Assembly: GCA_030264375.1 (NCBI GenBank)
Contig: JASCQW010000119.1
Span: 8,305,190-8,369,189 of the forward strand
Source of the DNA: Carcharhinus longimanus
Lineage: Eukaryota
Direction of reading: 5' to 3'
Length of the DNA stretch: 64,000 nt
Part shown: positions 7,666 to 63,360 of the stretch, piece after piece
Layout: every line of letters starts with the position of its first letter
Position numbering within the stretch: the stretch's first letter is position 1
The notes under the pieces: model-generated
Database searches by the model: none
Told to the model about the DNA's origin: nothing
Seen by the model: the letters and a program-made list of their open reading frames with translations, nothing else
Program-made: the position numbers and the translations under genes

Positions 7666-7701
7666 CTAAAAAAAATCTTAGGGAAATATACGCAAATGAA
7701 A
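7666..7701 (+). CDS. Micro-exon E1 (36 nt, phase 1-1) of unidentified coiled-coil gene; xKKNLREIYANE
   Basis: ctgccagtattcag|CTAAAAAAAATCTTAGGGAAATATACGCAAATGAAA|gtaagt; open in phase 1, same size class as the other exons. Confidence 0.65.
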
Positions 7702-7989
7702 GTAAGTATTTTTGAAAAAAAAACCTTGACCATATGTTTCGAACATTCTCTATCACTGAAAAAAGAAATAATTCTCAGAATTGCATATGTTTGGGTATTT
7801 GTGAGTGAATTCTCCTCGATAGTACATGCCGGAAGAAGAACGCCCATATCACCTGTTAAATGCAAGTACAATGCTTGCAAGGCTAATGTAGATATATATG
7901 TGCTCTTCCAGAACTAAATTCAACGTCTAGCATACATTATTCGCTTCGTGATTTGTTTATAAATTTCTGATTTGAACAAATGACGAGAA

Positions 7990-8330
7990 ACACCGAAAGG
8001 AAAGAGAAACGTTTCGTCCTCATCCGTTCATATCCACGTGTAATTAATTCACAACACAAAATGGCCAACGCCGGTTTGCTTGCAAAATGGTACACTGTCA
8101 TAGCAATTTCCCAGCGATCACCTTTTGGAAGGCTGCAAGGAATGTGGGTACCATTTGAAAGGAAGGATGAGTTGGTCTTGGAAACAGTCGAGCGGAGGTA
8201 CAGACGAGTGACACGCACGTGAAAGGCTTGACGTTTTTTGGAGTATTTGAGGACCCTGCGTCTTTTCGACGGAGTTTAATAGAAAATGGCGGTTATAGTG
8301 GAAATCTCATTTATATTTACATAATACTGA
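7990..8330 (+). mobile_element. CR1 RT C-terminal fragment
   Basis: ORF 7980-8222 has MWVPFERKDELVLETVERRYRRV, similar to FWSPYLRKDILALERVQRRFTR. Confidence 0.65.
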
Positions 8331-8388
8331 AAGACCTTAGTGTGCATGCAATGGCCTGGAAAATTTGCCTGCATTGTAAAGATGGACA

Positions 8389-9845
8389 AACTCGAATGAT
8401 ACACGGAATGTGGGAGGAATCTCGAGGAAACGCATGCAGACACGATAGAGAACGCGGAGACGCAACACAGTGACACAGCCTGGGTAATCATACCAAGATT
8501 TCTGGCGCAATGTGGCAGCAGTGCACCCACTGNNNNNNNNNNNNNNNNNNNNNNNNNNNNNNNNNNNNNNNNNNNNNNNNNNNNNNNNNNNNNNNNNNNN
8601 NNNNNNNNNNNNNNNNNNNNNNNNNNNNNNNNATTGATTTGCCCCTGCGTTTGACACTGTGCATTCGGATCATAGTTTTTTTTTCGACGAATCGATGTAC
8701 GTTCCCAAATCATCTAGTCTACTGACGAGCTGAATGAAATCAGGAACGAAAATCGACATGAGGAAATTGATGGAATGAAAGCTGGATAAATATCCATGTC
8801 CTGAAAGTCTTCACTCCGCGTATCTGAGGAATCCGTCATGGGGAAATAAAAAGTAGCTCCATTCGTGTCTAAAATACAAGTTCTGTTCCAAAATTATACA
8901 CATATAAACTTAGAGACTTTAACTCCAGTCCAGCAAGAGTTATTGATAGTTGGTTAGATTAATTTTAATGTGACCTCACTGTTGTTAATTTGGAAGGTTC
9001 TGCGGATAACCTGTGCACAGGAAGATCCAAAGCACCATGACAATTTCAAAATTCAGTTCTGAATATTTGATTTTTTTTTTCCTGTTTGTGTTTCTGATTG
9101 TTAGTGTTGCAATGTTCAAACTGAACTGAAATCTTGATCAGACAGTGTGATTCCTCAAGCAGCAATGTTATGGAATGCCCCGTCAGGCCCTTGCAGAAAG
9201 GTTCAATTCATTTCCTCAGTCCATTTTTTAACGTTTGAGGTTCTTCCATTCAAGTGAGGTGTACCCAATTTGCAGTCCATATGATATTTTAGACACGATT
9301 GGAGCTATTTTTTCCCCCATGACCGATTCCTCAACTACGCGGATTGAAGACTTTCAGGACATGGATATTTATCCAGCTTTCATTCCATCAATTTCCTCAT
9401 GACGATTTTCGTTCGTGATTTCATTCAGCTCGTCAATAACTGGATGATTTGGGAACGTACTTCGATTCGTCGAAAAAAAAACTATGATCCGAATGCACAG
9501 TGTCAAACGAAGGGGCAAATCAATTGGAGAACACACAATGAAGAGTTTCCTCAGCCAGACGGTGGCGAATCTTTGAAATTCATTGCCATAGAAGGCTATT
9601 TGGACCTAGTATTTGAGCGTAGTTAAGATGGAGAACGATTGGTTCTCGACTGGTGAAGATAAAGATCAAATGTGACGAGCAGAAGTCAAAACAATGAAAC
9701 TGTGAATGGCACAGTGGGTGCACTGCTGCCACATTGCGCCAGAAATCTTGGTATGATTACCCAGGCTGTGTCACTGTGTTGCGTCTCCACGTTCTCTATC
9801 GTGTTTTCTCGAGATTCCTCCCACATTCCGTGTATCATTCGAGTT
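8389..9845. repeat. Inverted duplication: arms 8389-8876 (with gap) and 9285-9845, about 410 bp spacer
   Basis: Near-identical reverse-complement sequence; ORF track gives the same peptide MIWERTSIRRKKNYDPNAQCQT on opposite strands. Confidence 0.92.
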
Positions 9846-10304
9846 CGGTTCTTTGGACGTTCCATACTTTGAATGTACCCAAACAGGCGCTGAGGTCTGT
9901 TGATTGCGTTTTATTTTTCTGACTGTAATTAAATTGTAGTGTTAACATAAGCATACTGCTGACTAATAAATAAATCTTAATTTTATTTCACCACTTAGTA
10001 TTGAGTAGCGGCACAGACTCGGTCGACAGACTTGCCAAATTCTGTTCCAAGGCTCATATGATTGTGTTGCCGCTGGACCGGAGATTTTCCACTGAGTGTT
10101 GCAATTTATAGTGGAACGATTCAAATTAATATATGTTGCGCTTCTATCCGAACTTTTAAATATAAGGAGGATGGGCAATAATTGCTTATGTCGCCAGCGG
10201 CTCAACTATTTCAATGGAAAATAAGAAAATCTGGTGTTAATGCTAACTGTGAGTGCGCCACTGGAATTAAGATTTGGATTCTACATGTTGACCTCATCTC
10301 GCAG

Positions 10305-10331
10305 AAAATGAACTCAATCAAAAATCTGAAG
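10305..10331 (+). CDS. Micro-exon E2 (27 nt); KNELNQKSE
   Basis: acctcatctcgcag|AAAATGAACTCAATCAAAAATCTGAAG|gtatga. Confidence 0.7.
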
Positions 10332-10484
10332 GTATGATAGATATGTTGTTGTCAACCAAATGCTGATTTTTGCGTATACTATATCTATGTTTTCTTTCAT
10401 TTGGCCTACGTCGTGAGAAAACTGATTTGACTGATTCTTTTTTAACATCTTGGAACACTGCATCGAATCCTTGAAGACACCAGA

Positions 10485-10600
10485 GATCTCTAGCACCGCC
10501 GGCAGTGCACCCACACCCGAGGTTCCCTGCCGGCATGTGGTGACATCAAACGAAATTCTGATGCACAGCGGGCGGACCAGAGAATCCCGCCTGTAGCAAA
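10485..10600. mobile_element. Short GC-rich MITE-like fragment
   Basis: cgccggcagtgcaccc...cagcgggcggaccagagaatcccgcc in an AT-rich background. Confidence 0.4.
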
Positions 10601-11114
10601 CAAGTCAGCACATTGCGCCAGCGGGAAGCACTCAGTCAGAAGTTGCAAGAATCGCAATCATATCATTGTTGTCTTTTCTCACATCATTATCTTGTGCAAA
10701 ATCGCCAGACTGCCAGAAATAATTGGCAAGTTTGAGACAAATAATCACTCTCGTAGAGTTCAGAACTCAGACTGGGGTTTAAAAAAAAAAGGCAACGTGA
10801 CATATCTGACCTTTCATATTAATGGACAATATCAAACACTATTTTTTTTGCAGTTTTTCGGAGCGTGTGCAAATACAAAGTCGCTGCTGCATTTCCAAAA
10901 AAGAAAACATCAACTGTATTTTTAATTATAGCTGGCATACGTTGGGATGTCGAGAGATTATATTGGGACCATCAAATTTCAACACAAACTAACAATTGCG
11001 AATATGAATATGAAAGTATTGAAGTTGTTAGTTTTGAGGAACAATGATGATAGAAGTCACGATGAGGAGAAATCACTGAAGGAGCAAATGTCGATTCAGA
11101 TATTTGTGTTTCAG

Positions 11115-11150
11115 AAATGGAAAACTTGAAAGACAAAGTCAACGAACTTG
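11115..11150 (+). CDS. Micro-exon E3 (36 nt); EMENLKDKVNEL
   Basis: tatttgtgtttcag|AAATGGAAAACTTGAAAGACAAAGTCAACGAACTTG|gtgagc; heptad-like M..L...V..L. Confidence 0.8.
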
Positions 11151-13370
11151 GTGAGCAGGATATTAACGCAGAACGAACATAAAAATACAACAACAAAAAA
11201 AGAAGACTGCAGAGCTGGTTTATTTGACACATATCTTTTGACAACATCGGTTTTGTAAGCAGGGAAACATATGGCACCTAAATGAGCGTGCGCTTGTCAT
11301 TGCCATGGTAAGGTCATCGTTTACACCAATATTACGATTGTGATGTGATATCGCTGAATTGGCGACACCGTTGGCGTTGGAGACGAGTTATGGTGCTGCA
11401 TAAAGATTGAGATTGTCAATCAGACGTTTAGCTATGAAGTGAGACTCCACTCGATCCTGAGCCACATCAGAAACTCAAAAGTATCTTATGAAGACGGACT
11501 ACATCACAGCTACATTTGTCTTTGGTTTTATTGCGAGTAGAAGGCGTTTCACAAAGGCATGCTTCTATTGATCCAATGCAACGTTTTTTTTGTCAAAATA
11601 ATAGTTGCTTAACAATGTTTGAAACGTTCAGTAAAATAAAGACAATTCGCTGAACATCCCCGCATTGAAATGCTTTAACATGCCTCTGTTAGGTTTTTGC
11701 CGGCAAAGCAGTCAGAAAACAAAAGCGCTTATGTCTTAAATGCGTCTGTGAATCCGGCACACCCTTCAGCCTCCAGAAAACATTTGGATCGTGAAGCTTA
11801 TTTTAAAGCAATTTCCACACTATGAGATGCACATGGAGAGAGACATAGTCTGGTTTATATATATATATATGTATATATCGGTAACCCTATCTTAATCCGT
11901 CAGGTGACTGACTCGCGTCGATCAATTGCATTCAACGTTACCGTCAATCGCCAAGGAGAACCACCGCATCCGCACCATGAGCACAGATGAAAACAAACGT
12001 CTCAAGATGTAGGCTCAATGATTGTTATACATTCTCAGCTTGTCAGGAATGGAAAGACCAGCGTTGATTAAACAGGGAAGAACTTTAACATACCCTTGAG
12101 AAGAATATTGCCCTAAATAGATTCATTTAAAAAAGAACTCAACTCAGATATTCATCCTACATCAGATAACTGTCTTATAATAAATGCACGCCTGTGTGCA
12201 GCAGCATACAATATGGTTGCCCAGGCCAATAATTATCTCAGTAGAGTACAATCACGGACAGATTAAAGACCAAGATGTATACTTATTATTTATTTGTAGA
12301 ATGCTATTCTACACCATCTTACTGCTACACTCACCTAGCCCACAGAGAAAACATATTAGGCATTCTAATTATTCACAGTAACACATCGTGCTGGCATTGA
12401 AATTTCGAAATATGGCATTGAAATTGAAGTTTCGCATACAAATTGATACGTTTATTTTTACGTGACATATTCAGGAGAGTAAGCCATCAGTATTTGAGAC
12501 ACACACTTTCCCAAAGGATCTTTATGGAGTAAATGTGAACAGCGTATTTAATTGTGTAGAAAAATGAAATATTGTATAACACGGTTTGAAAAAAAAAGAT
12601 ATTCATTTAAAACTGTGATTAAAAGGTATTCATTCCTTTGAGCTGTTTGCGACGAAAATCCTAGTTTTCAAAATCTGACGTTGAAGGGAATTCAAACATT
12701 ATCATAAGTAAAGATATCATGCATGTTTGGAAGTGTGAGTATGAAATTCAAGTGGATAGTGCACAGTTAAGCTGAAATTCAGCTTATTGAATTGACTTAA
12801 ATTATTCATCATCGAAGTCACCTCGAAAAATACGCCGTGTGACCTTTTTTGTTTCCGCTTAATTTCTATGCGCTAACGAGATAGAAAATTTGCAGCCAAG
12901 TCTCCATATCGACTATAATAGTTGACAGTGAAGGCGACATCATGTGATTTCAAAATTCTCCCGAAAATGTCGTAATTTTGTGGCCCTTGAGAATTTAAAG
13001 CAGTGTTGGATATGAAATGTTTATGTGCCCATTTCCAATCTTAAAAAAAAAAGTATTTTGTACGTTATGATAGAAAAGCTGAGCAGTTAGTTGGGTCATT
13101 TTCCATTAAGGCCTGAAATTTGCAGTCCAGTAGGCAAATACAACAAACGTGGATGCATCCAGGCAAGGCAATTTTCTTGTTTTCGTTCGGAATAAGTATA
13201 ATTGACAAGGAACTGTTAGGTAAATACATCAGTCATTAGTGGCATTTCTTCAAAGGGTGTGACGGTATGCGTGTATTGACATTGAAACGCTAACAGTGCA
13301 ATTATGCCACAGCTTCAATCAACGCATATTTTCGTTCATAAATGTATTTTGTTTTTTTTCTGCATCACAG

Positions 13371-13385
13371 ACAAAACAGCAAAGC
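13371..13385 (+). CDS. Micro-exon E4 (15 nt); DKTAK
   Basis: long T tract...ctgcatcacag|ACAAAACAGCAAAGC|gtaagt. Confidence 0.7.
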
Positions 13386-13440
13386 GTAAGTCGTTGGTGT
13401 GGCATTTTGCTTCCTGAAATTAAGAGACAATTGATGGTAA

Positions 13441-14075
13441 ACCATTTGCATTCTCTCTATGCTATCCAATTGAGGCCGTTGCTGCACTGTAATAAGAATA
13501 ATTATTGGCAATTGTGCTTATTTTAGAATTCCCAGATTCTGCATAATTTCATTGTAATATTGTTCACCTCTTTTCATTCTGGGATAATCAACTTACTAAA
13601 TATTGGAAACTGAGAAAAATGTATTTCTCAAAAAAACAATTATTTCATTCCATTGCAAAATTAGTTCATTCCAACAACGACTAGTAGCAAATAGCAGCGC
13701 AGGCCATACCTCAGTCTTTTTTTTCAGAATTAAATCATGTATCAACATGCCTATGTTTTTTTTTTCTCTCCACGTAAAACTGACGTATTTGAATGAAAAC
13801 CTGACTTAGTGCCGATGTCTTATATCTATTTCGAAGTAGTAATTTGCTTTATTAATATGAAGAGGTATTGGAGTGTGTTCAATTTGAACACAATTTTGCA
13901 TCTGCAGATTACTTCCGACACTCCATAGACCATGTGCATCCCCTGTATACTATCCAATTGAGGCCATTGCTGCATTGTAATAAGAATAATTATTGGCAAT
14001 TGTACTTATTTTAGAATTTCCAGATTCTGCACTATTTCATTGTAATATGTTCACGTCTTCTCATTCTGGGGTAAT
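13441..14075 (+). repeat. Direct duplication of about 145 bp (13441-13588 and 13929-14075)
   Basis: ctatccaattgaggcc(g/a)ttgctgca(c/t)tgtaataagaataattattggcaattgt...tcattctggg occurs twice. Confidence 0.92.
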
Positions 14076-14094
14076 TTTATTTTACTGCACGTAG

Positions 14095-14130
14095 ATCTAA
14101 AAGACTGGGAAAAATCACTGAATAATTTAG
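14095..14130 (+). CDS. Micro-exon E5 (36 nt); HLKDWEKSLNNL
   Basis: ttttactgcacgtag|ATCTAAAAGACTGGGAAAAATCACTGAATAATTTAG|gtgaga. Confidence 0.78.
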
Positions 14131-14329
14131 GTGAGATGACCAAACGTTTTCCCAGTTTATTTTTTTCAAATCAATTATTTGTTTTCATATCTCAATCGAA
14201 TTTGCTTCACCGAGTTTGAAAAAGCGATTTTTTTTTTTGCAATTTCAGTCGCCATTAGTTGTCTGTTATCAAATGATATTAACATGGTAACACCTAACAT
14301 CTCAAAATTCAAGTCACATTTACTACATG

Positions 14330-16260: not shown

Positions 16261-16284
16261 AAATATTTTGAAGTTTTAGAAGAC

Positions 16285-20500: not shown

Positions 20501-20527
20501 AAGAAAAACAGAAAGCTCAACAAAAAG
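20501..20527 (+). CDS. Micro-exon E6 (27 nt); EEKQKAQQK
   Basis: pyrimidine-rich tract...accccatcag|AAGAAAAACAGAAAGCTCAACAAAAAG|gttaat (weaker donor). Confidence 0.6.
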
Positions 20528-23264: not shown

Positions 23265-25011
23265 GTCTCTCTCTCTCTTTCGGTCTGTCTCTCTGAAAAC
23301 GCATTCCCGAATGTTCCAAAGTTGATGGTCCAAGTCAAAGACAAAGTCAAGGCAGCGTGTGCCTGAAATCGCTTAGTGGTTTTGTAGTTCGCTTATGTCT
23401 TTGTAATAAGTATTGCGTAACCTGACCTGAATTGTAACCCTCGAAGTTGGGAAATGTTTCCGTTTCATGCATTGTTGAAGTATTAACCATTAAACGGTGC
23501 CATTTCGTTAGTGATATGTTGATAATATGTTATAATGAAAGACAAAAAACGATTGTTAAAAAAAACTTAATTTAGCACGCTGAATTCGAAATATCATTCT
23601 CTCACATTCATGCCAAATTGGGGAAAAAATGTTCCTGTCTGGCATCGTAATACACAGTGGCTTCTTTACGCTGGCGTCCAAACAAATATTGGTGTTTCAA
23701 TTCAGGGCTTTATTTTGCATTGTTGAAAGGAAAAAAATGTGGACGTTAAATAATTCGATTTTTTTTTAGCAATCAGGTCTTACAATTGCGTAGTTTATAC
23801 AGTCATTGCATAGAAAACAATTGAATTCTTCAGTGGCCGAAGATTTCCTGAGTCTCAAAGGTTTCACTGGGAGTTGTTTGTAAAAGGTTATTAAAGCAAA
23901 GTTTTTTTTTAGTTTTGAAATCAGTTGCAATTGTACTTTCTTTTCCTGATAGTGTCAGGAAAGGTAAAGCAATTCGGGTGATAGCTCAGTATTTAAATTT
24001 CCCAGAAACACACATTGAAAAATTGTAATTTGCTGTATCCGATTTAACATAAACTTTATCAAGGATTAGAGGTGTAACACTCTGCGATGCAACTAAAAGG
24101 CAAAAATAAAACAATTTCAGAGAGTAACACAGGAGAGTCGCTGATGAATATAAAGTGTGACATTGGCAGAATCTGAAAAAAAAGCAACACGACATTTATG
24201 AAAGACCAGAAAAAAAGTTGAAAGTTTCAACAGAAAATAAAAAGATAAATAAAACTGGAGACCATTTGTACTTACGAACTGAAAAGACATATCCAAATTT
24301 AAATCGCGGAACAGCACACGCTTGAAACTCGAAGACCTGCAAGGAGAACAGTACCGGATTTTGAAATAACGCAGAAATGAAGATACGCGTCATTCAACAA
24401 TTTCAATCTTTGAAGGACAGGAAATGAGAATGAATGATTTTCCCAGATGGTCAAAGCAATATATATGTCCATATAATCGGAGAGAGTAAGGGCAATTGGA
24501 ACCCGATTTTAACATTTTCATTCCAAATGCCGATTCTAGGCGTAGTACGGATCCGACTTAGAATTCCACTTTCAAGGGCCCCGATACGCCCTCAGCCACC
24601 GCCAGTCGGATTCACGCTGTGGGCGGGTTTTAGCGCTGCCGGAAAGATCAGATCTCCGAACCGTGCATGCACAGTTGAAAAGAAAACACAAGCGCGTCCG
24701 TCACATCACTGCCGGCCGCATAATGCCACCCAAGGCCCAATATCCACTGACACACTGATAGTTGTTTGACACCTCCCCCCTCTCCCCTGTCGCTCAGCAT
24801 TGAGACACTTAACCATCACCACAACCCTGAGCCCCCTCCTCCCCAGCAGCACACCAGCAAGTGTTCACTTGCCTTCCCCTCAATGCTAAGAAGCAAACTA
24901 CATGGAACTTGTTAGAATGTTCTTTCAAACTGCCTGCAGCTGATCTGCCCTAACGAAGGACAACTCCATCAGAAAGTCGAAAAAAAATGGACTGGCAGAC
25001 AGTACAGGGCA

Positions 25012-27365
25012 ATGTTAGCACGGTCAGCTCCCCGATTCTCTAAAGACGACTTGGGAAGGCTGTTGGATGCAACAGAGGCGAGGCGGGCCACATTTTCCCT
25101 CCTAGGAGGACGCAGACACAGGGGGCTGATTGCCATGCGGCTTGGGAGGTAGTCGGCGCTTCGGTCAGGACCAGAATACATCCCCACTCACCACCTCACC
25201 CACCGAACAGCGAGGCAGAGTCGAAAGAAAAACTCAATGACTTCATCTGTGCAGCAAGAGTGAGGGCTGAACCCCATTCAGCATGGTCTCCCATATCTCC
25301 CCCAGAATTAATCAGATAATTCTCCTATTTCCAGTATCCTACATGCTCCATTTCCTGACCCACAAGCACCTCCATCCTTTCCCCCCAATGAAAACCAGTG
25401 TGTTTGCCCTCTGAGGGTCGCGAACTTATTCTCTGCATGAGTCACGCCACCATGTATTTCATCTGTCTCCACAGAGGAAGGCCGAGCGCAACACTCGAGA
25501 GAGGTCGAAGACAGGGGATGGTGAATGGACCTCCATGTCCTCACCCCGTTCGAGGAACGGGCGCTGGAGCTCACCAGAGAAGGAAAGGCGCGGGCTGTCA
25601 CCGACAGCCTGCCGTCCAGATGTGAGCACCTGACATTCCTACACTCACACGAAGGCAACTTGTTGGGGCAAGGGTTCCGGGTGCAAGGGGCAAGGTGTAA
25701 AGGAGACATATTTTATTGACATTTAGGAGGAATTTTATTGACATTTAGAGGATAATCGGCGCTTGGAACTGGCTGCCGGGGAAGTCGTGGAAGCGGAAAC
25801 AATAGGGAGACGTTAGAGGCATGTCTACAGCTATCTGAATGGAATGGAAACAGAGGCATATGCGGGCAAACAAATCAGATGGGCACCTTGGTCCCTACAG
25901 GATTGGATGTCCGAAGGGCCTGTCCCTGTGATGCAATTGTCTGGATTCAATGTTCTATGTTCAAGGCATTCATGTGATTCCTGTGTGTGACATCCCGGAT
26001 TTCTATCGCTGCCTTTCAACTGAACCTCGTCCTGTGCTTCAGGGACAAATCCTGAAATCCCAGGGCCTTCTGGACCACGTGCCCCGGCTACAGCTCCCAC
26101 CCATAATGAGAGCAACAGCTCGGAAAAGTCTCCAGAGGATCTGGGTGAAGGGACAGCTGAGGGTGGCACCATTTATCCGTCAGCCTTCACCTCACAGCTC
26201 AACATCGCAGAAACATACACGTCGGTGGTCCAGTTAGTGTTGAGGCTTCTGGGTCACTCTCTGGAGAGGACAACACGTCTGCTGATGTACCGTGGGCTTA
26301 GGAGGAAAAGTCCAAGCCATTTGGCATGCGGGGGCTTGCTGGAGGTGAAGACACAGCTGGCCCTAGGCTACACGTTGGTCATCTGAGATCACTTCTCCCT
26401 CAGCTGTTGGAGATGCAGCAACAGAGCCAGGGAAATCAGGAGGGGTTAACGGCCACACTGGACCAACTGTGAGGCTGCTGGGAGGAGTCCCAAAGCTTTC
26501 AGATAGAGCAGGTCTTGCGTATCTTGCGTGCTTCGTTTGACAACACTGCATAGATGGCGCCCGCTGTGGAAATCCTATGGCAGGGGTTATTCACCATGGG
26601 TTGCAGGCTCCAAGTAGTGGCCAAGTCATAGCAAACCACAGCGGAGGGACTGAGCAGGTTTCGTGCGATTCTTCGGTCCATGGCTGAGAGGTTTACGAGC
26701 TTGCAGAAGGTCCAGAGGGACAATTCTGAGTCACTGTGGGCAATGACAGCAACCCTTGAAAAGGCGGCCCAGTCTCAGAGGGCCACAGCGAGGGCTTGCA
26801 GAGGATAGTCCAGTCTCAGAGGGCACTTGCTGCGGACATTGAGAGATGGCCCACTGCTCAAATGGACATCGCGAAGGGGTCGACCACGATGGGTAGGATG
26901 CAAATGGTCCTCCAGGACTGGTTGTGACAGGTGACACCTGAGCTTCTGGAGTTCACTGCAGAAGGACCAGTAGCCCATGAAGTGACCCAGGAGCCAGAAA
27001 GTGACCCCGAGAGAGGAGTAAGTGCACAAACCCAGGACTGGGTCTTCCAGCCAGGAGACTGTGGCTATGGCAACATATTCTGACTCTCCCCTTCCTGACA
27101 CTGGGACATCTCAGGGGCAGTGGAATGAAGAGGGTGTCATGGAAACATCCTGGACAGCTGGAAGCCAGCCAGGCCCCTCGGGATCCAGGGCCTCCAGAGG
27201 CCGCCCGCCACGCACATCACAGGCCACGGGATGAAGTCGGCAGCTGACCCCCTCCATCTCTGATGAATATTCTGGAGAGTGCCTGAGGCGTTGTGCCAGG
27301 CAGCGCAAGGCTCGAAGTTGTAGTTGCACTGAGAAGGCACGGAGAAAGAGCTGCCCTGATTATAA
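25012..27365 (+). pseudogene. Harbinger Myb/SANT-like DNA-binding protein pseudogene (exons about 25012-25259, 25475-25621, 26043-27365)
   Basis: MLARSAPRFSKDDLGRLLDATEARR...AWEVV...RTARQSRK..NDF..AAR|RKAERNTRERSKTG..DLHVLTPFEERALEL; GT-AG introns; frameshifts. Confidence 0.8.
25660..25962 (+). mobile_element. CR1 3' fragment inserted in intron 2 of the Myb gene
   Basis: aaggggcaagg..aaaggaga...tggaactggctgccgggg...gaagggcctgtccctgtg...tgttctatgttc. Confidence 0.75.
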
Positions 27366-27899
27366 AGAACCATAAGCAACGTACTGCTTTCTCGTTACAA
27401 GTATGTGAGTTTCACCAGCTTACAGGAACACCTTTATTGTAAATATATGTTTTTTTTTCGCCACAGCTACCTGCAAACAGTTGTCTTGACAATCACCCCA
27501 TGGATGTCTCATGGTGATATCAGATGCTGTGGTCCCTCAATGTGGTGTAACTAAGAAAAGGAAACCATTGGACACTCACACCCCATGAGTGATGACCTCC
27601 CGCCCTGCATCCCATTCGCACCAGGGCCTTGTATGGGGGGTTCGGTACCCTTACCCACTAGACAGTTGTGGACCCAGGTGCTAGCGTGCATGTGGGTCCC
27701 AGGCAACAGTAAGACTGAATGGCGCCAGGGCATTATGAGAATGGTGCTTAGCTCAACGTCAGCATCCTCCTGTCTGGAAAAGATATCACGAGCACCGAGC
27801 ACAAGGGCCCACCACTCTAGTGCGACAATGTAGAGGATAAATGGAAGGTAGTTCCGGGGGTGGCGGGGGTGATGGTATGGAACCCAGAATCGCCATCCT

Positions 27900-29161
27900 C
27901 GAGCGACTGAACCACCCAATGATCAGAGCCTCCCTCGCCGCTCTTCCATGCCTCACCTGAGATCCCAGCCCTGCACCATCTGACAGGCGTTTCAAGGTGT
28001 TTTCATCCTCCTCTTTCTCCTCCTCCCCTTCCTCGTCCTCCTGCCGCACATCATCTCCAGTGACAATCAGCTTATCATTCTCCACGCCCTTTTCCTCCTC
28101 CAAGATGTCACATCGCTGCAAAACTGGATTGTGCAACTTGCAAAAACCACCACTATGCAAGAGGAGATCAGCAGGCTTCACTGGAGGACCTCTCCGGATA
28201 GGTCCAGTCTCCCGAATCTCATCTTGAGGAGCTCAATGCAGCTCTCTACTGTCATGTGGGTGGCTACATGGACTTCATTATAGCCCGTCTCCGCATCAGT
28301 CACTGGCCTCCGCAGAGGCGTCATCGGCCATGTCGGAAGCGAGTAAACCATATCACCCAGAAGCCACCCCCGCAGTCTGGGCTCTCAAATACTTGCGGGA
28401 TGTCTGACCTCCTTACAATGGATTTGTCATGCAAGCTGCCTGGATGTCTCGCGCAGTCGTTCATGATTCTCATATTGTTGTCACACACAATTTGTACATT
28501 CAGGGAGTGGAACCCCTTCCTATTAACAAATTGCCGTGGATTCTGTAGGGGGCCCTGAGGGCGACGTAGGTGCAGCCGACCGCTCACTGTGCATTCAGCA
28601 CCCGCGCAATTGCAACGATCTCCACAGCCCCGGAGTCCAGATGGGCCTTTTCCAGGTTGGATTTGACGTTTTGACCAGCCTGGGCATACAGGTCTTCAGT
28701 GACCTGCTTGACACGGGTGAAGACTGAAGACAAGGATATACCACAGACATCTCCGATCGGGGTTTGGAATGCACCAGTTGCATAAAAGTTGAAAGCAGCC
28801 ATCAATCTGACAGACACTGAGAGCGGGTCCCCCCTGCCCCCGCCCCCAGCTCCGCACTTAGGAGCCTTTTCCTGCAACAGGTTGCATAGGTGTCACATGG
28901 TATCCTTTCAGAGTCAGAGACGTCGGCAGCATATGGTGTCGGACATCTCCTCGAACGGCGTTCGTGCACGAAACTGCCGAGGTTTTTGTCCCGTCCTTCT
29001 CCAAAGCCCCTGCTCTGGATGAATGATGTCCACATCCTGCCTCTAATGGTCGTCTCATTCGACTCCTCGAAATGGTCCGGCCCGCGCCTCCTGTGCCAGC
29101 AATTCTTCCTCCATTTCCTCCTCCTCAGCTCCAGCGGCAATCTGAAGAATAGCAAGATCAA
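27900..29161 (-). pseudogene. HARBI1-like (DDE_Tnp_4) Harbinger transposase pseudogene
   Basis: PLSVSVRLMAAFNFYATGAFQTPIGDVCGISLSS; FVNRKGFHSLNVQIVCD..M..CARHPGSLHD; LHN...acidic tail...GRAAREALI..FS; several stops and frameshifts. Confidence 0.93.
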
Positions 29162-29714
29162 TTAGCCCGTGCTGCCAGACAAACACTGGACATCGAGCGC
29201 AGCAACAGCTCAAGGCTCAACACTCACCTCCCCCCTCCCCCATCCCGCCCACGAAACCCTAACAATCGCAGAACTGCCACCGACCTGAGACTGCGAAATG
29301 GCCACATTAACAGGACACACTTGAGTAGCTGAGAGCTTTCGGATGCCATGCAGCGACTTCCTCGCCAACCCTCACTGAGGAAGCGCCTGATTCAGACTTT
29401 TACTTAGCAGGTCCCTAAAAGCGCTGTTACGGTTTGGTAAACGCGGTGGTAAAAAGGAGGAAATGCTGATAGAGTTGGGCGGCAGTGCATTATTTTAATT
29501 TAAATGCATGCAAATGCTTTTAAATCATCGTAGTGCCCGACTTGGGCCCGGAACGGATTCTCCTATTCGCGGGTCTCACGAAAGTGGCGATCTGGTGGAC
29601 GCGGGTGCAGATCGCGATGAAGACGTTACACCCGACTTAACCACGATTTCACACCCGAAAACGGGCGCAAATCGGTGATAAATTTGGACCGCCTTGTGTC
29701 ATTTTCAAAAGTTC

Positions 29715-30110
29715 ACACATGAGGATGGAAGATAATTTAAGATGTTGAGAGGTATTAAGATGTTGAGATGTATTTATCAAAGGGATAATCGGAAGCTTTT
29801 TTTTTACCACAGCGCTGAAATGGTTGTCACAAGAGGACACAGGTTTACGTTGCTGGGGAGTAGGTACAGTGGAAATGTCAGGGGTAATTTCTGCACACAG
29901 AAAGTGGTGGTTGCGTGGAATGGGCTGTCAGCAACGGTGGTGGAGTTTGATTCGATGGCGTTTTTTTTAAGAGATTTTTAGATCAGTACATGACATTAGT
30001 AAGATAGAGGGTAATAGGTAAGCCTAACAATCGCTAAGGTAGGGAAATGTTCGGCACAAATTTCTGTGCCGAAGGACCTGTATTGTGTTGTAGTTTTTCC
30101 ATGTTTCTAT
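29715..30110 (+). mobile_element. CR1 3' end
   Basis: TRGHRFTLLGSRYSGNVRGNFCTQKVVVAWNGL; tail ttttccatgtttctat. Confidence 0.9.
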
Positions 30111-33100: not shown

Positions 33101-33134
33101 CACATTACTTTTATAACTTTTTTTTCTTCATACA

Positions 33135-35153: not shown

Positions 35154-35177
35154 ATAATTATTTATTTAAGAATGATA
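35154..35177 (+). CDS. Micro-exon E7 (24 nt); DNYLFKND
   Basis: ctttttcttctcttattttctgcttag|ATAATTATTTATTTAAGAATGATA|gtaagt. Confidence 0.6.
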
Positions 35178-35424: not shown

Positions 35425-35460
35425 AACTGAGCGACTGCAAAGAACTTCATTATAAATTTG
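35425..35460 (+). CDS. Micro-exon E8 (36 nt); KLSDCKELHYKF
   Basis: ccctgttgacattgcag|AACTGAGCGACTGCAAAGAACTTCATTATAAATTTG|gtgagt. Confidence 0.78.
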
Positions 35461-52005: not shown

Positions 52006-52032
52006 AGTTGAAAAAACTTCGAGAAAGCAGTG
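52006..52032 (+). CDS. Micro-exon E13 (27 nt); ELKKLRESS
   Basis: tttacatttcaatag|AGTTGAAAAAACTTCGAGAAAGCAGTG|gtaagt. Confidence 0.75.
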
Positions 52033-53087: not shown

Positions 53088-53237
53088 TTTGATAAGAGAG
53101 GGGATTAAGGGTTATGGGGAGAGGGCATGAATGTGGAACTGAGCCACGACAGATCAGCCATGATCTTATTGAGTGGCGGGGCAGGCTCGAAGGGCTAGAT
53201 GGCCTACTCCTGCTCCTATTTCTTATGTTCTTATGTT
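53088..53237 (+). mobile_element. Young 5'-truncated CR1 3' end
   Basis: gatcagccatgatcttattgagtggcggggcaggctcgaagggctagatggcctactcctgctcctatttcttatgttcttatgtt. Confidence 0.92.
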
Positions 53238-55069: not shown

Positions 55070-55084
55070 AAAAAGCATTGAACG
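55070..55084 (+). CDS. Micro-exon E14 (15 nt); EKALN
   Basis: ttttggtctactttacag|AAAAAGCATTGAACG|gtaagt. Confidence 0.72.
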
Positions 55085-58000
55085 GTAAGTGTCTTCCTTT
55101 TATTTCTTTGGCTTATATTATGTTGCAGGGCACAATGAGAGATGAGCAATTATGGCTGTTCCAAGGAAATTGTTACTCTTTGCTTTCAAAGTGGTAGAAA
55201 GTTAACTTATCACCATGGCAACAAAAGAAGACAAAAAAAATGCACGGAGTCTGTTCGTTTTGGCAGCACAACCTAACGTTCAGCAATTTTGATTTCCCAA
55301 TACAATTGTCATTTTATGAATAACATTGTACGGCCTGTTTACAGTTCCATGAATTGTTCTACGTACTTAGGAATAAAATTGAGCCTCTCGTTCCGACTCC
55401 GTTCAGCAGTGCTTAGTTTATGGTTGGGACAATGTTGTCAGTCTCTGATGATACACAAAGGATCTTGCGTCATTAAGATCGGAAGCATGAAGCAAGAAAG
55501 GGGGAATTCCTGGGTTGAGTTGAAGTGATAAATGTTACTGATGGTATCGTCACGATCAGGTACTCACCCCATCTGTACGAAAAAGGCCTACAATACTTTG
55601 TCTGCATGCGGAGACATCTCATTTCCAAATAAATGTGAGGTGACTAATTCTTCAGAGTTGCAATTAACATTTGATTGCTCGTACGTGCCCACACATATGT
55701 GCCACATAACTTCCAAGGCGGCCTTGTCTGGCATTCGATTCCTGACGACTAGGTTCCTAACAGACAGGTGGCTAGATTTAAGTCTTCATTATGTCTAATA
55801 TTTCATGTGATTTTGGTGTGGCTGGTGAGGGAATCCTCACTGTCCATTCGTTGTTGCCTGTTAGAAGGTGACATCGATTTCTCTCTCCCTGTCTCTTTCT
55901 GTGTGTTTGCTGCACTCTATTTGTTGTGCTTACGTCTGCAGAGCTGCAGGGAAGACGTCTGTCGTATGAACGTTTAAGCGGCGATGAAATATTCACCAAT
56001 GAGGATGGATAGGAACCCGGAGAGAAGCGCGAGGTTGTTGTCTTTCAATGCACACACCGTTCTTTTCTGCTGCTGGATGTGCTTGAAAAGCACTGACCAC
56101 AGATACTGATTATCAGATTTATCTGAACTCATGTATTTTAGAAGTGTGTTATCGCTTCCCTTGGAAATAAAACAGAGTGCCTGAGTTAAATGAGCAACAT
56201 TGAAGGAGGGACTCAGTTTTTTTTCCTACAAAGGAGGGTTTGACTCACAATTTGTGGTGAATCAGTGTTAGGTGCACCCGTGCATCCAAATTGATTGATT
56301 AGGACTTTCTCAGATTGCTGCTGACAGGAATGTACTTGCGTTGGTGCGGATGACTGCTTGAAACAAGTCGTGTTGTTCTAATGGAGCTGTGCCTAGTGTT
56401 GTTCGCTGAAGAGATTACAAAACAACATTTTTTTTATCGCCGAATCATTGGAAATTTGAAAAAAAACAATTCAAAGATGAGCTGCTTGGAACCACCGCCA
56501 CCACCACCACCACTACCCCCCCCCCCCCCAACAAAAGAAAAACAACGTAGTGCCATTCTGATCCAGCCAAGTCATGTTTACGAGGAAATAGTATTTCGTT
56601 TTGCAATCCTTCATGTGCTATCGCATAGATCTGCAATCCCAATGATTGACATTTCTTACAATATATACAAATTTACAGGCAGCTAGATCAAAATCACACA
56701 TTCTGCCCTATCCAACAAATTCTTAAAAACTTCGTGATGTGCGGTCCTCGAGTCTTCAAATGTGACCCCTGACATCCTGAAGTCTGAGTGTTTTCATGTT
56801 TAGTAAGGGAAAGTTAACAGACCATTCCGACCGAATTCCGCATACTTGCCTTTGAATCAAAATGAAAGAAGAAATGCAGCTTAATTAGTAGACTGAGCCC
56901 ATTCCTAGCATTGAATCTGACGGTAGAACATATATAGTATTAAATTGTAAATGTGTTCTATTTGATATTTGTAGTGAGGTAAATGGCATTCCATTATGTC
57001 GGGTTAATGGGTGTTATTTGAGCTGGATGCATCGAAGCAAGTTGCCATCATGCCTCATACGTATGGTGTTGATAGCCCTTGAACAAAATAGATTGACAAA
57101 AAAAAAATGTTATTGTCTCAATTCCAAGCATTAGGCACCACGAAAACTGTAACGGTTGAAAAAACCGAATTCATGGTCGGCAGCAAATCCTCGGCTAAAG
57201 GCCATTTAATACAACTTAATTCAATGTTTTGCATAAAACGGTGACATTTTTTACCTTTTTTGGCCAACATTGAACAACATTTCTGAATCGAAACCATATC
57301 TTTCATGAATCTTATAATCGTCTCTAAACTTGTTTCTACCTTCATGTGAATCTGGACGGATTAATTTCCAGCGCAAGTTTGGTGACAGCATTTAATACCC
57401 ATTTGGTACTTTTGAATTAAGTTGTGTTCAAACGGACTCCAGTGAAATTACTTCAAAACGTATGGATCGCGAAGAGAATAGAAATAAAAAAAGATAGTGG
57501 CACGTCACCGAGAATGGGTCGTTCATATCGCGTTTTTGATTAATTACCTTCAGTACATCAGCATCTGAATTGTTTTCTGTCCAATTGTATCCCTACCACC
57601 CACACAAACAATTGCCCATGTGCATACTTGTCCAACATTGTGAGGGTATGTGTGCGAGGGTTTATGTGAGTATGTGTGCACATGCATTCAACTTCATTCC
57701 AAGCAGTTAAGTTAGATGCACGCAGCTTTCAAGATGTAAACATCTTCTGAAAGCGCAATCACACCTTATTCATCATGCACTAAACGCATGATCTTTGTCC
57801 GTGACTTCAGTTGAAAGGAACATAAAATCTTCCTTTATTTTACATTGAAAGATCTCATTATGTTATGCATTTTATTGAAATACCGTGCAGCTTATCAATT
57901 TCAAAGGATGCAACACGAGGCAATACAATATATTCACAACTCATAAATAACGTAACCAAAGCTTTATATTCGAAAAAGAAAATATTTTATTTTCAGCCTG

Positions 58001-59159
58001 ACATTATGTTCTATGTACAACTGCATCTCGGAAGTAACGTGGATTGTTACGTGCTTAATGCAGCACCAGTAAGAAATTCCAAATCTTAGATTTAACATAA
58101 TCGTTTTTAAACATAGATTTAAACATAATCGTTTCTTTTGTTTGTGGCATGCGGGAGTCTCTGTCAAGACTCGCAATTATTGCTCATTCAGAGTTTCCCT
58201 TGAAAGTGTAATTTCGCTTCATGAACCGCTGCAGTTGCCGAATTGCAGATGCATACAACCCAGTGCTTTCAATTTAAGTCAGTTTGTTTTAACATCACTG
58301 CCAAACACTGAAAAAAAATAGTTACATTGGTATCGGACAAAAACATTTGTATATGTTGTTGTTAACTTGTATCTATCATTGTACGTCAATTGTACATCAA
58401 GCGATAATCGCATGTACATTGAGTAAGGGATTGGAGCAGTACAGATTCGCTGCCAAAAATCAATGGCACCTTAACACGTGGAGGTTTGTTTTTCAAGCGT
58501 AAAGACCGCAAGAGGCAACCATAATGTATGCGAAGGGAAAACACAAATTTCGATCAGTACACAATATGTAATAGGGTAACGAAAATGAATGTGTGACCCT
58601 TGGAAGATTGTGGCATTGCGTTAATTTTGTGGAAAGGATAAAGGACTGAGACGTTAAATTAATCGTTTGCAGTTGTTTAAAGATCGTGGTACACTAGTGG
58701 TTACAGAAAATACAGACACTATATAAATGGAGGAATGTCGAGCTTTCATTGTTAATATGGGAAAAATAACATGGACATGTGCTGGAAGTCGCCGTGGCGT
58801 GATGACTTCCATACTTCGTCTTAACGCAAGTAATTTGGGAGATAATGGAAGCATTGTTTTAATTTTTTTTTAAGAAAAGAGCCGGTAAAGAAGTAACGTG
58901 CCGTAGCCATGTCTTTATTCATAAAAGGTGAAAAGCAAAATGGAGGAAGGCATTGGCCACGCTGTGCAACATCTGTCATTGGGAAGTTAGAAGAACCAAC
59001 TAAAGTTGCAATGTTAGAGCACTTTGAATGACACATTGCAAACCATAATTGCTCTAAACGAATGGAGGAAAATTAAAGCTTATAAAAGGAAAAAAAAACT
59101 TTTTTTTTCAAATCCATGCTTGTGCTGATGATTGTAAGTAAACTAAACTAAAAAAAAAA

Positions 59160-61700
59160 ATCTGCCCTTACTTGGTCCATATCCCTCTATTCCTTCCCCA
59201 ATCAGGTGTCCATCCAAATAACTCTATAAAGTTGTTAATTGACCTGCTGCCACCGCATTCTCTGGCACTGCTTTCCAGGCACACACCACTCATTTCATGA
59301 AAGGCTACCTCCACTCATCTCCCTTCAATTGACCCCTCTCACCTTGAATCTGTTCTGCTATGAAATTGATACTTCTACACGTTGAAAATGCCTCTGAATA
59401 TCCACACTCTCCATGCCTCACTTAAATTTATAGTTCTCTTACAATTTTTCCTCTTGTCTTTCTCGTGAAAAATAAATCCTGGTTCGTTCAACCTCTCCTC
59501 ACAGCCAATAATCTCAAGGCCAGGGAACATCCTGGTCAACCTTTTTTGTACTGTCTCCAAATGTATCACTTCGTCACAAAGGTGCAGTGACGAGAACTGC
59601 ATGTAGCACTCAAAATGCGGCCTAAGCAAGTTCTTACGGATCTGCGAAACTATTTCACAGTCCTGCACTCTGTTCCCCGGCTGGCGACTGTTAGAATTCC
59701 AGAGGGCCAGATCATCTTTGCCGGTATCCCCGTTCTTCTGGAACTGCATATCTGCGCACCCACGTTCTTCTTTGTGTTATTGTTCTTCAGTGTTCTGCTA
59801 TTTCGGTTATAATTCAAATCTAAATTTGATCCTGAAAAATGCAGGAACTTGCATTTGCACTGTTCGAAATCTATCTGTCATTTATTTCTCCAATTCTCTT
59901 CTGGCAATCCCAGGCACTATCAACAATTTAACGAATTATCGGTTAATCCTCAAAACTACTAATGAGATCAATTATCTAGATTACAAACTACAGAACTCCC
60001 AGCACTAACACTGTGCTACACAGTACCTACATATTTCCATTTTGAAAAAAAAAATGCTTGTACGCAGTCCCGAGTCTTCGATAAGCAGCCAGTTCTGCAT
60101 ACATTCAGGCAGCACACGCTGATCCCATCTGAGTTTAGTTTGTACATAACTCTGCTACATGGGGGCATGTCTAAAACCATACTAACGTAAAGGCAAACAA
60201 TATTCATGGTCCTTCCCCCATCAATTATCTTTGTCACATCTTGAAAAAAAAATCTCAGTCAACTCTTGGCTACAAAACTTTCCAACACAAAACCATGCTG
60301 CGTATCACAAACGAGTTAATATTCTTTCCAATATGCAAATAGCCGGTCCTCAATATCTTATCCAAAATCCCCTCCCACCCCCACAAACCGCGTATCAATT
60401 TCACGCACCTTCATTTCCCTGCATTATCCCTTTCAAAAAAAGAACAAGAAAAAGCAGTGTGTATTCTCCAGTCGCTTGTGTTCAAAGATGTTATGAAGAT
60501 ATCTGTTATGGCCCAAGCTAATTGTTCCCTTGCCCCCTGCAGTATTCTTTGATGGATCCCATCTGGTCCCAGGAATTTCATTGAATCCCTAATATTAAGA
60601 AGGAAGCGATTGGGCCCATCGGGGCTGCACCGACAATAATCACATCGAGACCTCATATTTAACCTGCTAATCCCTCTAAATGCACATCCCAGAACAGTAG
60701 TCGTCCATTTAGCATGTCCAATGCCTCTCACCTACACGTCCAATGAATGGGCCCACTCTTTATCTTGCTAGCTTCCTAGTCCACCTTTTATGTTTCTTTG
60801 TTTCTATCTTTGGACTGTCAAATGAATCCGCAGCACCCTGCGCAAACCTACGCACATATTTTGAAAATGTGCAGACTCAGCAATAGACAGTGACCCAAGA
60901 GGGGTCTTGTCTATCTTATTGCAATTCAGAACAATCAACAGTTCCTCCTTCAAAATATTGACATTCTGTAGAACATTCACGCACCTACAACTGGTCTCAG
61001 CATCGGCCACTTCACCCTCCTTGGTGAATACCGATGCAAAGTGTTGATTAAGCATCTCACCCACTTGCTGTGGCTCCATTGTTCTTGAATGGGCTTAATT
61101 TTATTTTGCTTTCCTCTTGCTGCTAAGTTAGCATTTAATGTCTTGGGATTCTCCTTGATCCTGTTTGCCAAATTCGTTCTGTGGCCCCTTTTAAACCATT
61201 TAATTGCATATTTATTTTCCTGTCAACGTTAACAGTACTCCTCAAGGGCTTCCTTAGATTTACATACCTTGAGATAGAAATTGTTCCCTTTTTTGTGCTT
61301 ACATTTCAGCCTGTATCCATTGTTCCAGATTCCTGACATTTCTGTCTTTATTTGTGCGTGGTCATGTCTCCCTGGATAAACTATATCGATAGAATAAACC
61401 TGTCATTAAAGCCTCCCACATGCAAGACGAACATTTGCCCTCAAATCACCGATGCCAAACCTCATTTTTCAGTCCCTTTCTAATTTGGATGCAATAGTCA
61501 ATGGGCCAATTAAGTTCTCTCACCGGAGGGCCGCTTCTGCCTTTTCTCTGTCTTACTGAAAATTTGTCAAATTATGGTAGCAAACCCAAAATAATCCCGC
61601 TTGAAATATAGCTCAACTTATCTGACTCATTAACTAACATCACGCCTAATATAATCTAACCCCTCTCTGTTTGAATTACCAATATATGCTCTCAAAAAAA
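59160..61700 (-). mobile_element. Long decayed CR1 ORF2
   Basis: ANRIKENPK; GEMLNQHFASVFTKE; IDKTP/GPDGIHQRIL; LLRPHFECYMQFSS..LETVQKRLTRMFPGL. Confidence 0.92.
60575..60903 (-). mobile_element. HE1-like SINE nested in the CR1
   Basis: ggcccatcggggctgcacc...atttagcatgtccaat...tctttggactg...gtgcagactc..acagtgaccc. Confidence 0.75.
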
Positions 61701-61789
61701 CACTCATGATTGCTTCCAACAAATAGTTGTCTTTCCGAGCCCGGGCAGCACGGCATTCCAAGTCCATACCAACAAATAAATGATGAGCG

Positions 61790-62108
61790 TAGGTGATGAC
61801 GCATTGGTTTCACTGCTCAGTTTCGGGGCAGGAGGGGCGAAGAGGGATTTTCGAATCCTACCAGGGTAGATGGTGGAACTTGGGTTCAATTAAAATGTTT
61901 TGAATTAAGTGTGTACTGAACACTCTGAAACCATTGTTTATCTGGTTCAATAACGTCATTTCAAAATGGAAATCTGCCGTGCTTACCTTGTCAAGCCGTT
62001 TTGTGACTTCAGGACCAGAGCAATGTGGTTGACTGCCGACTTCCCTTGGTCAATTAGGCTTGCACAATCAACGCTGGCCATCTGGTGATTCACAAGTTCC
62101 ATGAATGA
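61790..62108 (+). mobile_element. Deu-domain SINE (SacSINE1-like)
   Basis: ttcgaatccta..agatggtggaa...tctggttca...ggaaatctgccgtgcttacc...gcaatgtggttgact...gctggcc...ccatgaatga. Confidence 0.75.
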
Positions 62109-62199
62109 GTACAAGTGCGAATTGGGGAAGAAGAAGAAAAAAAACACTACATTACGTGAGATTGTTGTTTGTTAAAAAGCAAGATAAATAAGTAGTATC

Positions 62200-62900
62200 C
62201 GTTTAGATATTGTGTTTCTAGTTTCCAGGAGAAATTGGCTCAGATGCCACACAGAAGGCTGGTAGACAATACAATTTCAAATAGGATAAGAGGTATTTTA
62301 TCCATTCAATAGACTACTGACTAAGCATGAAAAGAAAGGATTCGAGAAAAATGCTCTTTTCATTATTCTGGTTGAAACGATATAATAATTAGTATACCTC
62401 GAGATTTGTTCCGCAGGCGCAAATAATTACCATGCATATTACGGATTAGGATGCAGGTTAGATGTTCCCATAGACAAACTTGATAATTACTCTAAAAATT
62501 GTATACGTTTAATTTGCCGCAAAGAAGGAAAATAGAAAAGCAAAGGGGCATAGGTAGGATAAGTTAAGAGGGAATAATGGCAGAACTGTTATTTTTTTTT
62601 CTCCAAAAATTAAAGTTATTCACTTTGGTACAAAATTGTCGAAGGGAAATTATTACCGAAATTAGGAAACAATGTGGATTCCTTGTGAAACACGAATATG
62701 AAAACCGCCTATGAAGCTTGTGAAAAAAAAAATGTTTTGAACATAAGTTGAAGAGGACTACCCAACTCGTTTCAGAGTGGGACTCAAACGTTGCAGGTTC
62801 AGCAAATGTCTATCCTCAACATTCAATAATAATTCGCGTTCCTGACATTGCTTTGAAATGAAAGCATGTTTTAACGATATTTCAGTCAGGGTAACATTTT
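62200..62900 (+). mobile_element. Highly decayed CR1 RT fragment
   Basis: gatgccacacagaaggctggtag (VPHRRLV-like); aagttattcactttggta (EVIHFG-like). Confidence 0.6.
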
Positions 62901-63324
62901 CGGATTCACCCTTAAGTCTGTTAACTGGGACTGGAATATGGGGACCGTTGATCGAATATTCGGGGAATCTATGCACTTAATGCCCATAGAAGCTTTGAAC
63001 TACCTGTCATGCTGAGATCTTGTTCCGTGTAATGAAATTAAAATGACGTTAGGAGCTGAGCGAAATTGACATCACAGAGGAGCAGTATAAAGTCAAATAA
63101 TGTTTCATTCTGTTATTCTACGTGAAGTGCAATCTTATGATTATATGAACTGAGCTCTCTATAAAGACTACATCATGAAATGTACTCTTACTTGGTGAAT
63201 TTCTTGCACAATTATGGCGCTTCGTTACAGATGAATTCTGTATTAACATATATTTATTAAGTATCAAGACAATAAATAACATTTCCAATCATAGAACTAA
63301 AATAGTTATTTATCTGAATTATAG

Positions 63325-63360
63325 AACTGAAAAAATGTGAAGAATCATTCAAAAAGTCAG
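63325..63360 (+). CDS. Micro-exon E15 (36 nt); ELKKCEESFKKS
   Basis: tatttatctgaattatag|AACTGAAAAAATGTGAAGAATCATTCAAAAAGTCAG|gtaaga. Confidence 0.78.

Follow-up and report, generated by a model that had tools for sequence, protein, structure and literature searches.

A megabase-scale micro-exon array in Carcharhinus longimanus predicted to encode a long coiled-coil rod with a C-terminal B30.2 domain

PMC4046983 describes BG genes as encoding one immunoglobulin (Ig)-like domain, a transmembrane segment, and a tail of 13-36 exons of 21/24 nucleotides (nt), and butyrophilins as combining Ig domains, a few heptads, and a B30.2 domain; PMC12841164 reports butyrophilin genes in cartilaginous fishes. 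In TRIM39, TRIM69, and TRIM21, a coiled coil is followed by a terminal PRY-SPRY/B30.2 domain. The guinea-pig enterophilins, likened to the present locus by description only, combine an extended heptad rod with B30.2 and lack Ig and RING domains; they are cytosolic and far shorter. Here, we focus on a 64,000-nt window of the 2.68-Gb genome of Carcharhinus longimanus (C119:8305190-8369189, + strand; C119 is contig JASCQW010000119.1), in which a preliminary description, made from the letters alone, had proposed that symmetric phase-1 micro-exons make up a hidden gene for a coiled coil, taken to be the tail or stalk of a butyrophilin/BG-type receptor. The hidden gene is borne out, its predicted rod having a local hydrophobic period of 3.5; the receptor assignment is not, as the 2.06 Mb of DNA read (11% N) yielded no IgV, IgC, or RING/B-box exon and the relatives contain SPRY/PRY and coiled coil only. 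We lean towards the view, somewhat more probable than its alternatives taken together, that the window holds internal exons of one ~1.2-Mb gene for a long coiled-coil rod with a B30.2 domain, probably a secreted disulfide-linked oligomer.

Chicken BG and the present locus share a long coiled coil built from many tiny exons, 21-nt exons included. The locus differs in that no Ig exon was found in the DNA read, more than 100 exons, mainly of 27/36 nt, span ~1.2 Mb, and the terminal exon encodes B30.2; exons of 27/36 nt dominate in place of a BG-type tail of 21/24-nt exons, those of 21 nt occurring mainly in the 5′ samples. Butyrophilins (BTN1A1/2A/3A) likewise place heptad repeats before B30.2, whereas here there are hundreds of heptads rather than a few, no IgV/IgC exon was found, and the B30.2 domain belongs to a separate clade. 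The TRIM proteins share the order of coiled coil and terminal domain; in contrast to them, no RING/B-box was found here, and the coiled coil is far longer and micro-exonic. Coregonus XP_045061842.1 (1997 amino acids (aa), annotated as 'putative LRR-containing protein DDB_G0290503') resembles the predicted protein in its signal-peptide-like start, giant coiled coil (period 3.5), and C-terminal PRY-SPRY; its B30.2, however, is just 23% identical to that of a Callorhinchus relative, and we regard it as an analogue with a rod likened by layout. A carp skin-mucus protein tabulated in PMC12311534 bears the same automatic name; it was given no weight here, the link being one of name. The chondrichthyan coiled-coil and B30.2 models treated below agree with the locus in their divergent B30.2 clade, coiled-coil rod, and isoform differences of 6/9 residues, but are mostly 3′ fragments, whereas the window's gene is predicted to be about as long as the longest of them.

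Scans confined to the window letters found again all 15 plus-strand segments of the preliminary description, each AG/GT-bounded, a multiple of three, of phase 1-1, and of the length given for it. Their 429-nt join was reproduced without a stop, Pro, or Gly in the phase-1 frame, the other two frames containing 10 and 19 stops. The set was incomplete, since three further well-scoring candidates lie between these segments (Table 1); the join of all 18 exons is likewise free of stops, and none of the 18 falls in a repeat that also occurs in the flanks. A fixed filter (lengths 15/24/27/36, phase 1) returned 16 phase-1 matches on the plus strand of the window versus 2 on the minus strand, and 30 Markov simulations of the window gave a mean of 1.5 matches (maximum 3). 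In a blind scan of 1.064 Mb, which used splice signals only, ignored translation, and covered every length from 10 to 63, peaks appeared at 27 nt (42 plus/8 minus) and 36 nt (41/6), all other lengths giving 1-13 calls; the excess was scant in the 15-nt class (9 plus/5 minus) and small in the 24-nt class (7 plus/1 minus). The minus-strand null proposed earlier yields far fewer matches in the window and, at 27 and 36 nt, in the larger region. The exon model used elsewhere in this analysis was trained on plus-strand seeds, so that its plus counts are partly circular; the blind scan is free of this. The 15 segments are confirmed as present and are very likely real exons.

Comparison of the window's gene (gene B) with a neighboring paralogue (paralogue C, C119:8598741-9018716) points the same way. 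A total of 42 exon pairs are collinear, 37 of them of equal length, with a collinearity score of 417 versus 145±20 for 100 order shuffles (maximum 209), and nine window exons have a same-length partner in paralogue C. Identity between the two genes is 61% in exons versus 30% in flanks, and by codon position it is 0.58/0.71/0.51, or 0.68/0.76/0.62 with nucleotide-only pairing; this pattern, highest at position 2 and lowest at position 3, indicates protein-coding selection in the phase-1 frame. Paralogue C corresponds to the 3′ ~350 kb of gene B only, and the preceding 70 kb yielded no first exon; possible readings are a partial duplicate, a shorter gene, and an alternative 3′ arm.

The array extends from the window in both directions on the same strand, with 107 plus versus 6 minus calls of 27/36 nt in 1.064 Mb, and was traced by samples upstream to ~C119:7.32 Mb, a total of ~1.2 Mb on one strand; its 5′ 485 kb was covered by samples, with ~340 kb of the 5′ part outside the DNA read. 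The lower bound of 15 exons given in the preliminary description stands, but the array far exceeds its scale of 56 kb, with well over 100 exons in ~1.2 Mb. After subtraction of minus-strand calls, a net 114-136 exons, or 1,140-1,300 aa, remain in the contiguous 723 kb, and 133 kb sampled upstream of it gave 17 plus versus 2 minus calls. Exon gaps in the contiguous part have a median of ~3 kb and reach 21-24 kb between called exons, and gaps after terminal exons are 50-70 kb. Internal exons of ordinary size (64-420 nt) were about as frequent on the plus strand as on the minus strand (54 vs 53; 144 vs 140). In the gene B model (C119:7805190-8528662), some called exon pairs are merely 56-138 nt apart.

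A B30.2 exon downstream, which had been predicted, was found intact ~160 kb past the window (Table 1), followed by an AATAAA at L027:183-188, and no other B30.2 exon of the divergent subfamily lies between it and the window. Pfam assigns this terminal exon to B30.2 (SPRY, E 1.2e-13), a PDB search with a profile of three paralogous B30.2 domains gave the B30.2 of BTN3A1 as the best match (E 1e-27), and fold comparison returned TRIM7 and BTN3A1, with an AlphaFold model of modest quality (mean pLDDT 66.7, residues 1-39 below 50); in the ESM Atlas, the exon matched generic SPRY clusters. Once the terminal exon had been identified as B30.2, readings of the rod as a C-type lectin neck or as tetherin-like were given up. 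Sequence sets over L026:4001-10000 (4 of 6 listed) cover introns and thus represent DNA, and orthologous DNA occurs in two other organisms. The window exons would likely be joined to the B30.2 exon by splicing, and the whole 1.2 Mb, if one gene, would by extrapolation comprise ~170-190 exons and encode 1,600-1,800 aa, or ~250 nm.

The exon lengths follow a simple code, in which 27 nt (72 of 174 calls) and 36 nt (57 of 174) prevail over 21 nt (5) and 24 nt (5). Of the 36/27/15-nt code put forward in the preliminary description, the 36- and 27-nt components are indeed dominant, together making three heptads, but 15 nt is a minor class, as are 18, 21, and 24 nt. In 36-nt exons, residues at positions 1, 4, and 8 are hydrophobic in 80%, 80%, and 88% of cases, and position 3 of 27-nt exons carries the heptad on (58% hydrophobic); junction codons are mainly Glu or Asp. 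In genes B and C, 3.4% of exon residues are Cys, which is found at position 4 in 18 of 25 cases in 36-nt exons and at positions 5-6 in 21 of 28 cases in 27-nt exons. Because every micro-exon is of phase 1-1 and a multiple of three, duplication, loss, or skipping of any one leaves the frame intact, and since a 36+27 pair equals three heptads (21 residues), the gene amounts to a frame-safe kit of coiled-coil modules. In the mechanism that we propose, splicing of the micro-exons would yield a parallel coiled-coil rod of great length with a C-terminal B30.2 cap, exons of 15/18/21/24 nt adding single heptads or register shifts. The rod would lengthen by exon duplication, its length could be tuned by exon skipping, and Cys at the core position would permit inter-chain disulfides. 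As with stalk and head in collectin-type proteins, the rod would determine how far the protein reaches and its oligomer state, leaving ligand binding to the B30.2 head. At C119 ~7.809-7.817 Mb, near-identical 18-nt exons whose acceptors are similar lie in tandem, which suggests recent exon duplication. The 5′ parts of genes A and B contain runs of 21-nt single-heptad exons, the BG-type size, at C119:7.07-7.17 Mb (-) and 7.53-7.74 Mb (+).

Relatives were sought by a profile search of 1.84 billion representatives. Among the best 150 of 3713 matches, eight single-domain matches were prominent, seven being chondrichthyan RefSeq models (one via a cluster member) and one unnamed; shark and ray proteins with Ig and SPRY appeared as separate, distant matches. 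The relatives include Callorhinchus XP_042192744.1 ('nuclear-pore anchor-like', 1697 aa), Scyliorhinus XP_038671249.1 (945 aa) and XP_038668997.1, Leucoraja XP_055510696.1 (295 aa), Narcine XP_069775384-90, and Cetorhinus XP_078422387.1. They are labelled TRIM39/58/69-like, A33-like, or nuclear-pore anchor-like, although Pfam shows SPRY/PRY and coiled coil only, without RING or B-box in the family proteins and without an Ig domain in any of the eight scanned. Word-based searches (proteins ≤2000 aa) with the single B30.2 exon gave distant matches only, mostly of TRIM/BTN type (best identity 43%); the Leucoraja query gave one match, and XP_038671249.1 and the Coregonus protein came in addition from a profile query. 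The B30.2 tree has 31 rows (midpoint root, limited sampling, XP_038671249.1 left out), and a branch with 100/100 support sets 12 of them, namely four own-genome domains and eight relatives, apart from the others, which include the TRIM/butyrophilin rows. Paralogue D, whose B30.2 is 76% identical to that of Scyliorhinus XP_038668997.1, has four micro-exons that match the rod of this protein in order (7/9, 7/8, 8/9, and 8/9 residues), the last right before B30.2. RefSeq isoforms of relatives differ in blocks of 6 and 9 residues, and a coiled-coil period of 3.5 is seen in XP_038671249.1, with no clear peak in the Callorhinchus stretch tested. With its B30.2 in the divergent clade and its rod of phase-1 micro-exons, the window's gene is, as judged from sequence, a member of a mostly mislabelled, fragmentary chondrichthyan gene family, of which no description and no functional study was found in the open-access literature. 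Residues ~50-120 of XP_038668997.1 match dispersed repeats in the C119 DNA read, and the start of this model is probably a repeat-derived annotation error.

Within C119, six B30.2 exons of the divergent type were located, at 6.33 (minus), 8.53 (plus), 9.02 (plus), 9.09 (minus), 10.68 (plus), and 11.29 (plus) Mb. For five of the six, the upstream DNA read contains micro-exons arrayed on the matching strand; the array of the 11.29-Mb domain is visible from the presumed 5′ side and through pattern matches only. A weaker exon of this type lies on C81, at 94.27 Mb, with micro-exon pattern matches at 90.97 and 93.83 Mb; C81:85-102 Mb also holds many closely spaced B30.2 exons of the ordinary TRIM/butyrophilin type, together with a few V-set exons.

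Two of the competing explanations concern the exons and their connection. That the segments are chance AG...GT stretches chosen by eye would fit the weakness of the individual 15-nt calls and of the exon at 20501, but for the set it is ruled out by the blind length spectrum, the strand asymmetry, the Markov nulls, the collinearity and codon-position pattern shared with paralogue C, and the cross-species exon match, and we give it practically no weight; the set is real, yet single calls may err, because the 15-nt class is not clearly enriched and the 20501 exon has a poor donor. It is also improbable, in our estimate, that the locus comprises several shorter genes or alternative 3′ arms, with the window exons unjoined to the B30.2 exon at +223 kb or the protein much shorter. 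Paralogue C duplicates only the 3′ ~350 kb and yielded no first exon in the 70 kb preceding it, the longer database relatives measure 295-1697 aa, and the 5′ 485 kb was only sampled, all of which would suit such an arrangement; the gaps of less than 24 kb in the contiguous part, as opposed to 50-70 kb after terminal exons, and a collinearity with paralogue C that runs through the window toward the 3′ end argue for a single gene.

The other alternatives concern the location of the protein. Secretion is favored because two clade members have signal-peptide-like ends and Cys occupies fixed core positions: Leucoraja XP_055510696.1 and Callorhinchus XP_042192744.1 begin with a short hydrophobic stretch (11-residue hydropathy 2.9, best 19-residue value 1.5-1.6) that, judged by eye, is signal-peptide-like. 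A number of observations nevertheless weigh against a secreted rod or soften the case for the gene model. Five of seven relatives tested have no strongly hydrophobic N-terminus, though they seem truncated; the basic run that follows the Callorhinchus stretch would also suit a membrane-anchored rod facing the cytosol; and the N-terminal 381 aa of Callorhinchus have no match in the C. longimanus genome, so that this end may be a prediction artefact (an ESM Atlas query with it gave no usable match). The candidates for a first or signal exon of gene B itself lie on both strands and do not exceed chance level, whether sought by ATG/hydrophobic scans, by comparing four 5′ regions, or by tblastn with the relatives' N-termini, within DNA that is 11% N and leaves out ~340 kb of the 5′ part. 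Chondrichthyan rods carry few N-glycosylation sequons (1 in 1120 aa and 2 in 770 aa), and B30.2 domains are mostly cytosolic. The branch tying the window's gene to the two signal-bearing relatives is merely 94/94 and unstarred, the four paralogue D matches are singly weak (E 0.01-0.13), their order and place carrying the weight, and the relatives are automatic models, mostly 3′ fragments, with predicted gene structures. Accommodating several of these points, a cytosolic product of the same gene, serving as a scaffold or tether with its rod and B30.2 head either free or attached to the membrane by a short N-terminal anchor, is the less likely but serious alternative. No signal exon was found, sequons are few, the closest solved structures are the intracellular B30.2 domains of BTN3A1, TRIM7, and TRIM21, and enterophilins, or a TRIM protein minus RING and B-box, would offer a model; the signal-peptide-like N-termini of two clade members and the core Cys speak for secretion instead. 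A 111-nt phase 1-1 exon candidate (C119:7257709-7257819, +; L129:2520-2630), 64 kb before the first clear micro-exon, has an in-frame Met and no hydrophobic stretch, as the cytosolic arrangement would have it; it is possible that this is an early exon of the window's gene, and used as a query it had no second match in the genome. A butyrophilin/BG-type receptor, with Ig and transmembrane exons hidden in assembly gaps or unread DNA and the micro-exons forming a giant cytoplasmic tail, seems to us a doubtful proposition. The heptads before B30.2 in butyrophilins, the 13-36 tail exons of 21 or 24 nt given for BG in PMC4046983, the 21-nt exons in the 5′ parts of genes A and B, and N gaps of 1-5 kb in the 5′ region would be in keeping with it. 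The 2.06 Mb read (11% N), in which the presumed 5′ regions of gene B and three paralogues are represented, gave 49,449 open frames, however, and in these profile HMMs for Ig, RING, and B-box returned nothing below E 0.47 for IgV/IgC or E 1.2 for RING/B-box, while 4 of 4 control domains from sharks or rays were found (Ig 3/3 at E 1e-11 to 2e-42, RING/B-box at E 8e-27). None of the eight family proteins has Ig, and the B30.2 clade stands apart from the butyrophilin rows. A V-set search of the genome, with 150 of 928 candidates scored, placed none of these at C119:6.3-11.3 Mb, which does not prove absence. Scans gave no convincing transmembrane exon, and the best 19-residue hydropathy of relatives is ≤1.6.

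The known parts of this system are heptad micro-exons and B30.2; new are the scale, the 27/36-nt code, the lack of any Ig or RING found, and a probable secretion. A wider reading, which we put forward tentatively as having nearly even prospects, is that of an undescribed cartilaginous-fish family in a cluster of at least 5 Mb, whose megabase genes of 100-200 frame-symmetric micro-exons would encode secreted, disulfide-stapled rods of up to ~250 nm with an extracellular B30.2 head, their length set by exon duplication and combinatorial skipping. If true, several Mb of shark-type genomes, now annotated mostly as short 'TRIM39-like' fragments, would be uncovered, and the array would provide an extreme natural test of micro-exon splicing, with >100 exons of 15-36 nt, outside the neuronal setting. 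Heptad register would be written exon by exon, making exon shuffling and length evolution legible from the paralogues, and B30.2, a domain familiar chiefly from sensors in the cytosol, would have found a new use if secreted on a long stalk.

Table 1. Micro-exons called in the window (window positions) and the terminal B30.2 exon (contig position)
Feature	Position	Strand	Basis and remarks
36-nt phase 1-1 micro-exon (reader 1)	7666..7701	+	window scan, exon model; array goes on upstream to ~C119:7.32 Mb
27-nt micro-exon (reader 2)	10305..10331	+	scan; partner exon in paralogue C
36-nt micro-exon (reader 3)	11115..11150	+	scan; partner exon in paralogue C
15-nt micro-exon (reader 4)	13371..13385	+	scan; 15-nt partner in paralogue C
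36-nt micro-exon (reader 5)	14095..14130	+	scan; partner exon in paralogue C
27-nt micro-exon (reader 6)	20501..20527	+	weak donor (score 0.6); weakest call of the set
24-nt micro-exon (reader 7)	35154..35177	+	window scan
36-nt micro-exon (reader 8)	35425..35460	+	window scan
15-nt micro-exon (reader 9)	38265..38279	+	scan; partner exon in paralogue C
36-nt micro-exon (reader 10)	38894..38929	+	scan
15-nt candidate micro-exon, overlooked earlier	39666..39680	+	scan, score 24
36-nt micro-exon, overlooked earlier	41677..41712	+	scan; partner in paralogue C (score 31)
27-nt micro-exon (reader 11)	43710..43736	+	window scan
36-nt micro-exon (reader 12)	45387..45422	+	scan; partner in paralogue C (score 28)
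27-nt micro-exon, overlooked earlier	47708..47734	+	scan; partner exon in paralogue C
27-nt micro-exon (reader 13)	52006..52032	+	window scan
15-nt micro-exon (reader 14)	55070..55084	+	window scan
36-nt micro-exon (reader 15)	63325..63360	+	scan; partner in paralogue C; array goes on downstream to B30.2 exon
Terminal B30.2 exon	C119:8528663-8529184 (L026:9474-9995)	+	phase-1 acceptor, 172 full codons, stop

The window contains eight N runs (1307 bases in all, at 3378, 8533, 19850, 31516, 38352, 42050, 46352, and 51128), which could conceal micro-exons. Its positions 24000-30000 form a GC-rich insertion (48-55% vs 39%) within the 14.6-kb gap between the exons at 20527 and 35154, and an open reading frame of this insertion (28324-28695, -) encodes a DDE_Tnp_4 transposase fragment (E 2.8e-10); the insertion is likely a decayed PIF/Harbinger-type element.

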